From: Eledone cirrhosa
Taxonomy: Eukaryota
Direction of reading: 5' to 3'
Length of the DNA: 64,000 nucleotides
Assembly (NCBI GenBank): GCA_964016885.1
Contig: OZ024752.1
Span: forward strand, 186,001-250,000
Shown here one piece after another: positions 1-62,462 of this stretch. The notes beneath the pieces were generated by a model. That model was not told the origin of the DNA. It saw only the letters and a program-made list of their open reading frames with translations, and made no database searches. How positions within the stretch are numbered: the stretch's first letter is position 1; each line of letters begins with the position of its first letter. The translations under genes were made by a program, and so were the position numbers.

Positions 1-27
1 TAAATAGCCGAACTTGTCAAGGGGTAC
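1..27 (-). ncRNA. 5' half of a large U3-A8 hammerhead (cut by window edge)
   Basis: Minus strand reads acccc-UUGACAA-gttcggcta. Homologous to 29282-29306, with the variable core position 7 differing (C vs G). Confidence 0.55.
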
Positions 28-429
28 TTCCTTATATGGGAAGATTGTCAAGAGGATTGGTTAAAATTTGTTGTAAACACAAATAAGTCTAATATATATA
101 TATAATATATATATATACAATCTTGTAACAGATTAAAAGCAGAATGTAGAGGAGGCACAAAAGAGAATAGCAATTGAGGAGGTCACATTTTCTACACGTG
201 TACATTTTTTAGACATGTTTATAAAACCTATATATTGATTCTTCATTTAAGCACAACACCTGCAAATGTTTGGGAAAGGTAAAGTTGATTTCATCAACCC
301 CAGTACTTTACTGGTACTTTATTTTATCGACCGCGGAAGGATGAAAGGCAAAGTCGATGCGAACTCAATGTAAACAGCTAGAAAAATGATATATATTTTA
401 TCTGGTGTTCTATAATATGTATATATTAG

Positions 430-790
430 TGATAGTTGATGCAGCGTGGTTGAATGGTTTAGATGCTCACTTCGCAATTATTAGGTCCCGGTTTCGATCT
501 CACTCCGTGGCAACCCTTGAACAAGAGTAATTTACCCTAGCCTCTGATTAACACGAATCTTGAGTGAAATTGGGGAGCGGAAGTTGTTTGGAAGCCCGTC
601 ATATGGACTGTCGCTATAATTCAAACGGCCAGCCATGTTACATACTCTGTCACGCTGAATCTCACCGAGATTGACATTATGGCTACACGTATCTGTGGAA
701 TGCTCAGCCACTTACACGTTAATTTTGTGAGCAGACTGTTTCATTGATAGAACAACTAGAACACTCATCGTCACCACAGACGGAGTTCCA
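430..790 (+). mobile_element. tRNA-derived SINE, CORE-like family (chimeric head plus common tail)
   Basis: A-box tggttgaatgg, B-box ggtttcgatctc, and tail tgtcacgctgaatctc...gaatgctcagccactt shared with many copies. Confidence 0.7.
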
Positions 791-1122
791 TTGTGTATTA
801 GTAATAACAATTTTAAGGTTGTGGACTGTCTAGATTTTATTCAATTATATTTGCATAAGATTTTATTTCAATTTACGTCTATTATATATATATATATATA
901 TATATATATATATATTGTTATACTTGGGGAGGGTCATATTTGTGTAATATTGCCAGAATTAATAACAGAACACACTCACTGTTTGGTTGGTTTTCGCTTT
1001 TCGCTTCTGTGTCTTTTATATCGGTAATCTAATTTATTCGGTCCTCAATGTTGCCATTGACTGACCGGCGGTCAAAAATAATACAGATACAATATAGACA
1101 CAAACACATATATATAGTTTAT

Positions 1123-1162
1123 CAGAGTTCTTTCGTTGCACATCTGCAACATCGTCAGTGGT
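1123..1162 (-). ncRNA. Degenerate hammerhead core
   Basis: Minus strand CUGACGA-u-gttgca/gatg/tgcaac-GAAA-gaactc. Stem I and the cleavage triplet are not intact. Confidence 0.4.
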
Positions 1163-1578
1163 GCTATTGTTTCCTCCCGTTGCATTGTATGTCTACGCCA
1201 TTTTTATTCAGTCTGTCTATATATTTATTTATTTATTTGTTTGTTTGTTCATTTTATTTTGTCTTCTTTGCGATGCGTTTGCGTATGTGTATAGTGTTTT
1301 GTTTGATGTGTGGTCGTGATTGGGTGACTAGTGTGTGTTTATATGTGTTTGTGGTTATTGTGCTTGTGTATGTATTTATTTATTTATCTATTTATTTATT
1401 TATATATGTTGTCTATGTTACCGTCGTGTTGTTGTCTGGCATGTTCGTATAGTACTGACCCGTTTTTTCGTCCTTTTAGTTCCCCCAGTGTTGGTCTATC
1501 CTTTCACCTATGCTACGAGCTGTCTCACCTATGTATGTTGTTGTATATATATATATATATATGTATATATATATATAT

Positions 1579-3417
1579 CAGAGAAGAGCTGAGGAGGCCT
1601 GGGCCATTGAGAAGATCAAACTCAATCCCAAAGTGTTCTTTTCATTTGCAAAAAAACACAAAATCACTGGCTCTACTGTTGGCCCTCTAATTGATGAAAA
1701 TGGCACTCTTCAAGACAATGCTAAAACCATGGGTGAGATACTGCAGAAACAATACTGCTCTGTTTTCAGCAATCCTGATATGGCCGATCTGGGCTGTATC
1801 GGCGATGTTACTCCCCATTACACCTTATCGGACATAACGTTTGGCGCCCCTGATGTCTTGGCGGCAATAAAGGAAATCAAGCATAATTCAGCAGTAGGTC
1901 CCGATAGGTTCCCTGCTTGTGTCTTGAAGGCGTGTCAACACCAACTTGCATCTCCTCTTGCCAATCTGTGGCGGAACTCACTGGATGCTGGATATGTGCC
2001 AGAAAACCTTCTATCCCAGTCTGTTGTCCCAGTTTTCAAAAAGGGAAACAAATCCCTTGCCGTGAATTACCGTCCAATCTCACTCACCTCTCATATCATT
2101 AAGGTATTTGAGCGAGTGGTGAGATCGCGAATGACCCACTTCCTTGAGAGTAACAATATGCTGAACTCCAACCAGCATGGATTCCGTAATGGAAGGGATT
2201 GCCTGACGCAGCTACTGCATCACTTTGATGACATTTTGAGAGCCTTGGGAGAGGGTTCCAACACTGATGTTATCTACCTTGATTTCAGCAAGGCCTTTGA
2301 CAGGGTTGATCATAACATTCTACTGAGAAAGCTGTCCAATATTGGTGTCACTGGAAAGCTGCTGCAGTGGATCAAGAGCTTCCTGTCAAACAGAACCCAA
2401 CATGTTGTAGTTGAGGGAGTCAAATCCAGCCCAGCCAAAGTCAGTAGTGGGGTCCCACAAGGCACTGTGTTGGGCCCACTTCTCTTCATCATCTATATTA
2501 ATGACATCACTGACATCATCAAACACAGCAACATTAAAATTTTCGCTGATGATTCCAAGCTCCAAAAGGTCATCAATGGCGTGGATGACCGGATAAGCCT
2601 TCAGTCAGACCTACTGGCTGTTACCCAATGGACGGAAAAGAACAACATGTTACTGAACGAAGACAAATTCGAACTGATCCACTTTGGAAAAGAGGATGCT
2701 CTGAAACTCCCGTACTCCCTTCCCTCCGGGGCATCCAACAACATCAGAGACTTGGGAGTAACCGTGGACAGCAACATAAGCTGGACCACGCATATAAGCA
2801 GCAAAGTTGACATGGCCCGCAGAATGTGTTCCTGGATCCTCAGAACCTTCCAGTCGAGAGATTCCCGCACCATTATCCTTCTCTTCTCTACTTTTGCCCG
2901 ACCACACCTTGAATACTGTTGTCCACTGTGGTTTCCCCACACGAAACAAAGTATCATGAAACTTGAAGCTCCTCAAAGGGCAATCACGAAAAAGATAGAT
3001 GGCATGTCAGACCTTGACTACTGGGGTCGATTAGAAAACCTGAAACTTTACTCACTCCAACGTCGCCGTGAGCGTTATATTATCTGCATGATGTGGAAAA
3101 TGTTCCATCATCACTGCCCAAATGATGTTGGCATCGCCTTCAAGATACACCCAAGGCTTGGGCCCCGTGCTATCCGTCCCATTCAAAAATCTAAATCGCA
3201 ACTCATAACAACAATACGGCACAATTATTTCACCTCAATCGGCCCTGCTCTCTTCAACATCACACCAGGACACGTCAAAACAGAAACTGACCACACAAAA
3301 TTCAAGAAGTCTTTGGACAAATTCCTCCAAGTAATCCCGGACAAACCACCCACACCCGGATATGTCTCCGCAAACAGTAATTCTCTTCTCGAATGGGCCA
3401 TGGTGCCCAAATCCTGA
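1579..3417 (+). CDS. 5'-truncated non-LTR retrotransposon ORF2 (reverse transcriptase plus C-terminal region), CR1/L2 group
   Basis: Uninterrupted frame with [69 protein letters not shown] and SLQRRRER. No endonuclease domain; the sequence starts right after a (TA)n tract. Confidence 0.93.
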
Positions 3418-3492
3418 ATTGAAAGACTTCGCCAGGTGGTGCTATTAAGTTAGACATGGCCTGGGCCAATACTGGCCAAAACATTTCAAAGT
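1579..3492 (+). mobile_element. CR1/L2-group LINE copy inserted in a (TA)n microsatellite
   Basis: RT ORF plus ~75-bp 3'UTR, with (TA)n on both sides (1545-1578 and 3493-4120). Confidence 0.88.
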
Positions 3493-60549: not shown

Positions 60550-61070
60550 TGAAGGCATGTGACTTAGTGCTCAGGGGGTTCGGTTTACGAACAAGAGACG
60601 TGTCCTTGAGCAAGACATTATTTCACATTGCTACAGGCCACTCTGTTAGGAGAAACAAAATGAGTTATACTCGTAATTCCACTGGTCTCCTTTGTCACAC
60701 ACCGTATCTTGCTGACGGTCCCTGTGAATTACGTTAAAGGAACACGTCTCTGTGGAATTCTCAGCCATTTACATGTCAATTTCATGTCAGAACCGACAGA
60801 TGTCCTACACCTACGCACATTATCTACCAACCCATGCTCTATGATTGAAATTAGGTGGACGGAAACTGTTTGGAAGCCCGTCTGTAACTGTAATTTAAAT
60901 TGTCAACTTTGCTATACACTATGTCACGCTGAATCTCCCTGAGAATTATGGTAAGATCACCGGTGTATGTGGAATGCTCAACTACATGTATGTTAATTTC
61001 ACAAGCAGAGGGTTCCTATGTTGAAAGACACCTAGAACAACCATCGTTGAAACCGACGGATGTCCAACAT
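60550..61070 (+). mobile_element. Nested/tandem CORE-like SINEs
   Basis: tgtccttgagcaagacatta plus two tail copies. Confidence 0.65.
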
Positions 61071-61518
61071 GACACAAAACTGTGTATTTACCAGTTCAAT
61101 TGAACAGTTAATACGTGTATACATTTAAATAACAGAGTGTGTTTTGGTGTAGAAGTACAAAACCAAGGTAGAAAAATCAATAAAAGTTGAGCGCATGGTA
61201 GATTCGATTGCCACTAGATCCACGTATCGTATTGACTTTCTTGTTCTTTTAGTTCATCTATCCCAAAACAACACTGTTTACAAAATGTAAACACATTTGT
61301 GTGCATGTACTTAAAGGCTAACGTCTAATGTTGCACCGTGTCAATTATGTAAGAGTGCGCAGGCACGCGCACACACACACACACACACACACACACACAC
61401 ACATATATATATATATCTATATACATATATATATATACACACATATATATATATATATATATATATATATATATATATTTAAAAGAATAGAGGTGTAACA
61501 CACGAGTTATGATATATT

Positions 61519-61799
61519 GGTAAAAGGAAAAGAAAATGCTGACAAATTGTTCCCAGTGAAAAATAGTTTAATTAGGAATAAGTAAAAATTAGTAATAGTA
61601 TTGGTTAGTATTCAGATTAGAGCAAACATCACGGGCGCTCTATCTCAAAATTATTTTTGAAAAGCATTAGAAATGTGCAACCGGTAAAACTTAAAACCAG
61701 GACTGAATACTAACCAATACTATTACTAATTTTTACTTATTCCTAATTAAACTATTTTTCACTGGGAACAATTTGTCAGCATTTTCTTTTCCTTTTACC
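61519..61799. mobile_element. Fold-back element, 97-bp perfect arms, degenerate U3-A8 hammerhead in the spacer (61654-61689)
   Basis: 61519-61615 is the reverse complement of 61703-61799; ttt-UUGAAAA-gcatt/aga/aatgt-GCAA-ccgg-UA-aaa. Confidence 0.85.
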
Positions 61800-61980
61800 T
61801 ATATATATATATATATATATATATATATATACATACACACATATATATATATATATATATATATATACATACACATATATATATATATATATATATATAC
61901 ACATACATACACATATATATATATATATATATATATACACATACATACACACATATATATATATATATATATATATATAT

Positions 61981-62054
61981 ACAATGATATTAAATAAATG
62001 GAAACTATATTCATAAAATCATAAATATAGTTTCCATTTATTTAATATCATTGT
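61981..62054. repeat. Palindrome, 31-bp arms
   Basis: 61981-62011 is the reverse complement of 62024-62054. Confidence 0.9.
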
Positions 62055-62225
62055 GTATTATACTCCAGAAAACTTGTCGAGTGCTTCAAATCAGTTATAA
62101 AGATATATATTTGTTGAATTACCAACAAATTAAATATCCCTTTTGCATATATATATATATATATATATATATATATATATATATAGGAGGAAGTTATAGT
62201 TCACTTGAAGCATTGTGTAATGAGG

Positions 62226-62462
62226 TATAAACGTTTGTATTTGTAAAGCCAAAACAATGCAGGTATGGATATAGAATATAAATGCAAATGCAAAAGATAT
62301 TGTTGACAATTAGTCTTTTACCTTAAATTTATTTAAATATATTAAGGATATTTAAATAAATTTAAGATAAAAGACTAATTGTCAACAATATCTTTTGCAT
62401 TTGCATTTGTATTCTATATCCATACCTGCATTGTTTTGGCTTTACAAATACAAACGTTTATA
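62226..62462. repeat. Palindrome, 115-bp arms, 7-nt spacer
   Basis: 62226-62340 is the reverse complement of 62348-62462 with ~2 mismatches; TA-flanked. Confidence 0.92.

Follow-up and report, generated by a model that had tools for sequence, protein, structure and literature searches.

We have analyzed a 64,000-nt stretch of the 2,996-Mb genome of Eledone cirrhosa (GCA_964016885.1, contig OZ024752.1, positions 186,001-250,000), here called the window, in which type I hammerhead ribozyme motifs sit in short islands. We consider it highly probable that these islands represent the 3' ends of several families of Penelope-like elements (PLEs), mostly 5'-truncated copies of coding elements plus one tandem retrozyme, which inserted singly or back-to-back into (TA)n tracts, likely by priming at both DNA ends. 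The first-pass annotation of the window had described a non-autonomous PLE or retrozyme system. Its Penelope-like origin is supported by Pfam matches to RVT_1 and GIY-YIG in family A and by motifs and homology in families B, D, E, F and K. The label non-autonomous has for the most part to be given up, since these six of the eight traced families lead to open reading frames (ORFs) encoding a reverse transcriptase (RT) and a GIY-YIG endonuclease (EN), and only the family of the 31.5-kb island is a tandem retrozyme. Because the six families extend into such ORFs elsewhere in the genome, the islands are best understood as 5'-truncated copies.

The traced families are A, B, C, D, E, F, G and K; those of the motifs at 20898, 43095 and 58505 were left out. 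Family sizes are exact pattern matches genome-wide, for which the reversed-pattern controls were all 0. We counted 10,850 matches for family A (motifs 32057 and 43272), 30,179 for B (29213, with a pattern covering the 3' half only), 25,836 for C (31502), 18,638 for D (42338), 2,834 for E (33.0 kb), 10,278 for F (61654) and 2,443 for G (21251), together 101,058 for A to G, and 2,251 for K (62.2 kb, flank pattern). The family A stub used as a DNA query against the genome gave no match, whereas its pattern gave the number above. Stretches from elsewhere in the same genome, numbered with an L, were compared with the window. The family A hammerhead of L037 forms the end of an element whose 770-codon open frame matches Pfam RVT_1 and GIY-YIG above cut-off; a 940-bp inverted arm of 99.1% identity precedes it, and the whole lies between TA tracts. 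Families B (L124, L125), D (L204, L206-L216) and E (L241, L242) encode YRDD RTs and endonucleases with CxCx5C linkers. Family D also has RWR, DKT, CxxC and CxH, while B and E have CxCx5C and CxH and are 39-56% identical to D. Family F consists of ORF1 and an RT-EN frame, 57% identical to that of A, with a YLDD RT and a CX4CxxC linker, and shares with A the Neptune/Nematis-type motifs (CX2-5CxxC linker, GxKF, DKG). Family K reaches a YVDD RT with GIY-YIG. By these motifs, B, D and E would be Hydra-type and A and F Neptune/Nematis-type PLEs. As in EN+ PLEs, the hammerhead lies in the 3' pseudo-long terminal repeat (pLTR), and 5' truncation goes together with a pLTR that is inverted in L037, L125 and L206 and direct in L204 and L282. 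Long ORF matches within a family are 87-99% alike, and most RT/GIY-YIG frames are interrupted by stops or frameshifts. In a genome-wide sample of 480 kb (48 evenly chosen round coordinates, contigs C1-C15), PLE ORF fragments make up at least 4.1%. The window had been thought to lack any PLE RT or GIY-YIG ORF. This holds for intact ORFs, but two broken GIY-YIG fragments are present, at 1405-1530 (-; E about 1e-8) and 34003-34190 (+; E about 1e-7). At L281, L282 and L038, families F and A carry an upstream ORF1 of about 330-455 codons that overlaps the RT frame in another reading frame.

Fourteen type I hammerhead motifs had been listed for the window, and six of them (21251, 29213, 31502, 32057, 43095 and 43272) pass a type I descriptor that permits C3-G8 or U3-A8. 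At three stringencies it found 4 (strict), 5 and 6 (relaxed) matches. The corresponding averages over 60 dinucleotide shuffles, made block by block, are 0.05, 0.12 and 0.30, and the reversed window gives no match. The other eight fail for different reasons: the motif at position 1 is cut off by the window edge, 1123 has weak stems I and III, 20898, 33906, 54769 and 58505 are worn copies, and 42338 (A4) and 61654 (C13) carry core changes that are family-wide. Relatives of 33906, 54769 and 58505 have intact cores. The complete motif at 29213 takes the hammerhead shape in its minimum-energy fold (z -2.6). Not on the first list were the worn motifs 33120 and 33255, which form a pair, another A4 copy at 42524 and several family B fragments. 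An Rfam scan of the window showed no hammerhead family among the 150 of 285 matches listed, which are dominated by microsatellite hairpins. The excess over shuffled sequence that had been predicted is also seen in the 480-kb sample, with 22 strict hammerheads, 8 of them with U3-A8, against 0-1 in five shuffles. This rate extrapolates roughly to 1.4 x 10^5 hammerheads genome-wide.

The proposed association with (TA)n and AATAAA was borne out as well. The window holds 165 runs of (TA)5 or more, and a repeat search of it is dominated by TA arrays. Of 15 motifs, 13 have (TA)6 no more than 200 nt 3' of their approximate cut site, compared with 21% of positions drawn at random from the window, and 7 have AATAAA within 60 nt (once past the TA tract) against a background of 5%, in tallies whose families are not independent. 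The island at 58489-58570 is not bounded by TA. In the 480-kb sample (TA)6 is found within 200 nt downstream of 12 of the 22 hammerheads and upstream of 4, with a background of 15%.

The geometry of the palindromes tells more about how these copies arose. All eight long near-perfect palindromes that had been listed exist, with arms 91-100% identical, but the inward-facing 42.3-kb pair, separated by a TA tract, is two nested insertions and not a single fold-back. Among the first 100 places per family, neighbours within 1 kb are divergent rather than convergent (18/0 for A, 15/2 for B and 11/0 for C), and an inverted arm is present at 23, 17 and 18 of 30 loci of A, B and C, where two-armed insertions count twice. 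Family G showed no divergent pair within 1 kb among the 100 places listed. Fold-back insertion, earlier described as routine, is thus frequent but not universal. In every family the 3' end falls on either of two fixed points, an internal TA or the end of a further tail of 44-80 nt. The tail is found on exactly one arm in 60 of 77 pairs, on both in 4 and on none in 13. In the 19 unequal pairs it sits on the long arm 12 times and on the short arm 7 times. A short arm with a tail that the long arm lacks cannot have been copied back from it, and the geometry is therefore better explained by two priming events for each insertion. At L204 and L216 the tail continues into the next ORF and is thus the start of the next tandem unit.

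Local inverted repeats in the 480-kb sample (arms of at least 30 bp, at least 85% identity, spacer up to 1 kb) number 57 and span 31,941 bp including spacers. Thirty-five end within 15 bp of (TA)4 (control 5.7%), which, together with the hammerhead data, upholds the claim of (TA)n targeting, and 26 show the pattern of one close end and one within 110 bp (control 1.3%). Matches to a library of hammerhead-bearing 3' ends number 32 at most, as the library flanks can also hold other repeats. About 60% of these inverted repeats look PLE-made, in agreement with the earlier suggestion that such elements are a major source of palindromes. The inverted match at 27.2-28.7 kb was discarded as a false positive of the library test; it is a pair of repeats resembling short interspersed nuclear elements (SINEs).

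We propose that the GIY-YIG domain would nick (TA)n and that both DNA ends at the nick would prime reverse transcription, one at the end of the RNA's 3' tail and the other at the fixed internal UA 44-80 nt upstream. Both complementary DNAs (cDNAs) would usually stop within a few hundred bases and be joined head to head. If both had passed the internal site a palindrome would result, and a tail-primed cDNA that stopped early would leave a non-duplicated inversion such as 21388-21504. The hammerhead, at 20-120 nt from the 3' end, would be carried along for that reason, and in canonical families it likely processes a tandem precursor RNA. At loci L064-L093 most family B copies reach no further than about 60 nt from the 3' end and break off in the 3' strand of stem II, so that most family B matches are not whole ribozymes; this suggests RT stalling at the ribozyme stem.

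Other routes to the same islands have to be weighed. A dedicated non-autonomous hammerhead system, retrozyme- or SINE-like, could have made all of them, as family C does form arrays in which units of 424-492 nt, each with its own hammerhead, follow head to tail and are accompanied by an inverted arm, and family G showed no ORF in 15 loci. The reading is nevertheless refuted for A, B, D, E, F and K by their ORFs and variable 5' ends, and the two GIY-YIG fragments lie inside the window's own islands, which makes it improbable as a general account. Palindromes would also arise by snap-back, when one cDNA folds on itself and is copied back toward the target. Many junctions are indeed near-perfect hairpins, many family B turns lie within hammerhead stem II, and private changes are common to both arms. 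Snap-back is still unlikely in our view, as it cannot place the tail on the shorter arm of seven unequal pairs whose longer arm has none, and non-overlapping tail-only arms exist (21449-21502, 42529-42577). Nesting in TA tracts is common, with the 42.3-kb pair as an example, and inverted pairs might thus be independent insertions at one TA hot spot, homogenised later by gene conversion; the strong divergent bias, the one-sided tails and the lack of a TA tract at most junctions render this very unlikely. That the palindromes are assembly or long-read chimera artefacts is hardly credible. No read or contig examined spans the 29.2-kb palindrome of the window, yet arms differ by up to 9%, their ends are fixed and asymmetric, and one arm was split by a later insertion resembling a long interspersed nuclear element (LINE). 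In addition, loose ends that continue into inverted family B sequence, and one opposite-strand joint, are present in contigs of run X1, possibly the assembled sample itself, and run X4. Dimerisation via a palindromic stem III was rejected as the cause of fold-backs: families B and D, with closed stem III, also form divergent pairs, and family G, whose stem III is palindromic, rarely does.

Several observations weigh against the explanation given here. For family G, whose 5' ends are variable, no ORF was found at the loci compared, as said. The two arms of a pair have in common 0.6-2.8 changes per kb that occur in no other sampled copy, where non-partners have 0-0.07. Yet just 18 of 84 pairs share such a change, and the sharing could also stem from one source locus or from later gene conversion. 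Arm-to-arm divergence in family A is only modestly smaller than that between loci (3.2% against 4.5%), and lower in 14 of 19 cases. RNA-editing scars were considered as a mark of a single template and dropped, since an excess of A-to-G among arm-shared changes was not seen in the coding families (1 of 43). As the shared changes are sparse and include this single A-to-G, they do not tell whether a pair goes back to a single RNA, to two RNAs of one source locus or to gene conversion. The clade names Hydra and Neptune/Nematis are based on motifs rather than on a tree, and no copy has been shown to be fully intact or active.

The catalytic cores of some families depart from the type I consensus, in which U4 and A13 are invariant. 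Family D has A at position 4 in all 100 matches listed (of 18,638), and the U4 version gives 69 matches. In family F, C occupies position 13 in 98 of the 100 matches listed (of 10,278) and stem I is eroded to about 3 bp, whereas its sister family A has a canonical core. In family J, whose stems I and III are long, all 100 matches listed have A4, the core has A7, and the hammerhead is the minimum-energy fold. For family D the hammerhead fold is predicted at -5.5 kcal/mol compared with -8.8 for an alternative that pairs A4 into box 2, which would argue for low activity. Cutting is probably weak or dispensable in family F, given C13 and the eroded stem I, and perhaps in family D, given A4. A census of 284 folds across all collected DNA, enriched by our own searches and uncorrected for kinship, found A7 in all 4 non-U4 families with C3-G8 and at least two copies, versus 1 of 16 U4 families. 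Family K is mixed at position 4 (5 C4, 2 U4), and one singleton has C4 with U7. We regard the association of non-U4 with A7 as a lead. Both a Hydra-type PLE and a separate retrozyme of 500 nt have A4/A7, and two more families have C4. It is conceivable, though we advance it with clear reserve, that U4 is free to change once position 7 is A, giving a working core variant, and that self-cleavage is optional for PLE mobility, as canonical A and broken F each reach about 10,000 copies. If this is true, A4 or C4 cores with A7 would be a working variant missed by standard descriptors.

By its repeat structure family C is a tandem retrozyme. Its short units hold TA tracts, follow head to tail with one type I hammerhead each at periods of 424, 466 or 484-492 nt, are 97-99% alike, and the arrays are often flanked on one side by an inverted array. 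Other tandem families were met on the way. Family J (L287-L306, first met at L175:4374) is a tandem repeat of about 500 nt with a stem III hairpin of variable length and 235 exact matches. L133, L167, L181 and L046 hold a family with units of about 592-595 nt, a U3-A8 hammerhead, a long stem II and divergent arrays. A 310-nt tandem hammerhead unit forms a divergent pair at L129:4273-5001 and adjoins a family C array.

Much of this architecture has precedents; we compare it here with the accessible portions of the cited papers. Inverted 5'-truncated copies with a one-sided tail of 30-40 bp, and (TA)n targets for Hydra and Naiad, are described by Craig et al. 2021 (PMC8557442), who call the hammerhead function unclear. 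Families B, D and E resemble their EN+ Hydra clade in the C-terminal GIY-YIG, DKT, RW[KR], CxCx5C, CxxC and CxH motifs, in short length and lack of GxKF/Y, and in the 3' hammerhead, (TA)n insertion, inverted 5'-truncated arm and one-sided tail. The tails here are longer (44-80 nt), and the family D core has A4, whereas Hydra hammerheads are reported as canonical. Families A and F agree with their Neptune/Nematis type in GxKF, DKG, YLDD, the CX4CxxC linker, the upstream ORF1, a GIY-YIG with C..C and H..H, and direct or inverted pLTRs, from which F differs by C13 and the eroded stem I over about 10,000 matches. Cervera and de la Pena 2014 (PMC4209133) reported U3-A8 in Cercyon PLEs, opposite-strand hammerhead pairs 100-700 bp apart, and low in vitro activity. 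Their minimal metazoan PLE hammerheads are likewise type I, with palindromic stem III and U3-A8, and are mostly single motifs from truncated PLEs. In contrast to these, several families here have closed stem III hairpins, we estimate 10^5 motifs where thousands were reported, and the accessible text contains no variants at positions 4 and 13. A PLE mobilisation or origin of retrozymes was proposed by Cervera and de la Pena 2020 (PMC7229834) and Li et al. 2026 (10.64898/2026.07.22.740005). The metazoan retrozymes without LTRs treated there share with families C and J the short tandem units, each with a type I hammerhead. Units are about 170-400 nt there and 424-502 nt here, and our arrays, unlike the published ones, have a PLE-like inverted arm and a one-sided tail; in the accessible texts the word inverted is absent from the former paper and occurs only in a reference title in the latter. 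Perreault et al. 2011 (PMC3088659) found that a viroid U4C is slow in vitro and functional in vivo, and that the A6-N7 phosphate contacts U4. Their natural core variants share with ours the U3-A8 covariation and the U10.1-U11.1 mismatch, while U4A, A13C and the 4-7 association are without counterpart in the accessible text. For Octopus vulgaris, 31 recently active PLE families have been described (PMC13282606), in a text whose accessible part does not contain the word hammerhead.

PLEs are thus already known for inverted 5'-truncated arms, tails on one side, (TA)n targets and cores with U3-A8, and the match to the Penelope pLTR architecture that, according to the first-pass annotation, would remove the novelty does exist in kind (PMC8557442, PMC4209133). 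Judged from sequence, the architecture is that of known PLEs, and the remaining interest lies in its scale, the two-primer footprint in coding families and the core variants. In the literature searched we found no U4A or A13C PLE hammerheads, no link between non-U4 and A7 and no twin priming in PLEs; judged by title, no relevant work on U4A or CAGAAGA hammerheads turned up. Such cores may already be contained in the study of PLE hammerhead variants by Lunse et al., and File S2 of PMC8557442 and bioRxiv supplements may bear on them. Most short palindromes and the estimated 10^5 hammerhead motifs of a 3-Gb genome would be explained as PLE insertion scars, and the hairpins should therefore not be mistaken for microRNA-like or regulatory RNA genes. 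With one-sided tails in four coding families, there is a two-primer model for the inverted PLE structures, unexplained so far, that can be put to the test. Likewise, the sister families A and F make it testable whether PLE hammerheads must cut at all, and the core variants whether A4 or C4 with A7 is an active core.

Table 1. Hammerhead-bearing and related features of the window from left to right (box 1 is a landmark of the hammerhead core).
Feature	Position	Strand	Remarks
Family-B-related stub	1..91	-	Box 1 (U3-A8) and 5' strand of stem II only; cut by window edge
5'-truncated coding PLE	916..1543	-	Broken GIY-YIG, then 3' region with weak hammerhead-like motif, box 1 at 1158
Worn hammerhead island	20848..21033	+	Box 1 at 20904; fails descriptor
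Family G stub	21206..21369	-	Canonical core, palindromic stem III, box 1 at 21301; 2,443 exact matches; no ORF found
Family B inverted stub	21388..21504	.	Minus arm 21388-21449 and plus tail piece 21449-21502, without duplication
Family B (Hydra-type PLE) fold-back	29201..29660	.	Complete U3-A8 hammerhead 29213-29306 (-); minimum-energy fold is the hammerhead
Remainder of family B right arm with tail	30513..30658	+	Split off by LINE-like RT fragment 29661-30512
Family C retrozyme	31065..31870	.	Inverted arm 31065-31337; plus arm 31336-31870 (about 1.1 units of 491 nt, with tail); hammerhead 31502-31544
Family A (Neptune/Nematis-type PLE) 3' stub	31984..32125	-	U3-A8 hammerhead 32057-32094
Family E (Hydra-type PLE) fold-back	32930..33354	.	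Tail on left arm; GAAA-to-TAAA change in both arms, absent from relatives displayed
U3-A8 hammerhead and GIY-YIG remnant	33850..34228	.	Hammerhead 33906-33946 (-), private G12A; broken Hydra-type GIY-YIG 34003-34190 (+)
Family D (Hydra-type PLE) nest	42291..42785	.	Plus copy 42291-42404 resumes 42639-42785; inverted D stub 42459-42592 in its internal TA tract; A4 hammerhead folds at 42343 (+) and 42524 (-)
Canonical-core hammerhead stub, another family	43095..43186	+	Passes descriptor
Family A fold-back	43201..43471	.	Turn inside hammerhead; tail on right arm
Worn family-G-related hammerhead stub	54614..54873	+	Box 1 at 54774
Family B inverted stub	56008..56136	.	Tail piece minus; 3' half of hammerhead plus
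Worn hammerhead with short inverted arm	58489..58570	+	Canonical family core; no TA bounds
Family F (Neptune/Nematis-type PLE, ORF1 and RT-EN) fold-back	61479..61799	.	Hammerhead remnant 61654-61692, family-wide C13; tail on left arm
Fold-back of 3' end, another hammerhead-bearing family	61982..62146	.	Truncation downstream of core
Family K (PLE, YVDD RT and GIY-YIG) fold-back	62186..62458	.	Turn at 3' edge of minimal hammerhead; 44-nt tail on left arm

Other repeats share the window with these islands. Beside the first PLE stub, a 645-codon open frame (1480-3414, +) carries motifs of a LINE-like, non-LTR RT. The fragment that interrupts the family B right arm inside stem II (29661-30512, -) is the C-terminal part of a LINE-like RT and likely has a 5-bp duplication. 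Fragments of another retroelement coding region lie at 37065-37932 and are also found in L009 and L042. A SINE-like repeat of roughly 190 bp, unrelated to hammerheads, has many copies, some of them tandem (27248-28678, 42873-43057, 51843-52071, 53530-53940, 55024-55636, 56786-56989, 58562-58673). A 113-codon frame at 57734-58072 (-) appears to resemble a mariner-type transposase fragment. Finally, a long simple-repeat tract at 12001-18000 shows extreme strand skew (GC skew to -0.91, AT skew +0.55).

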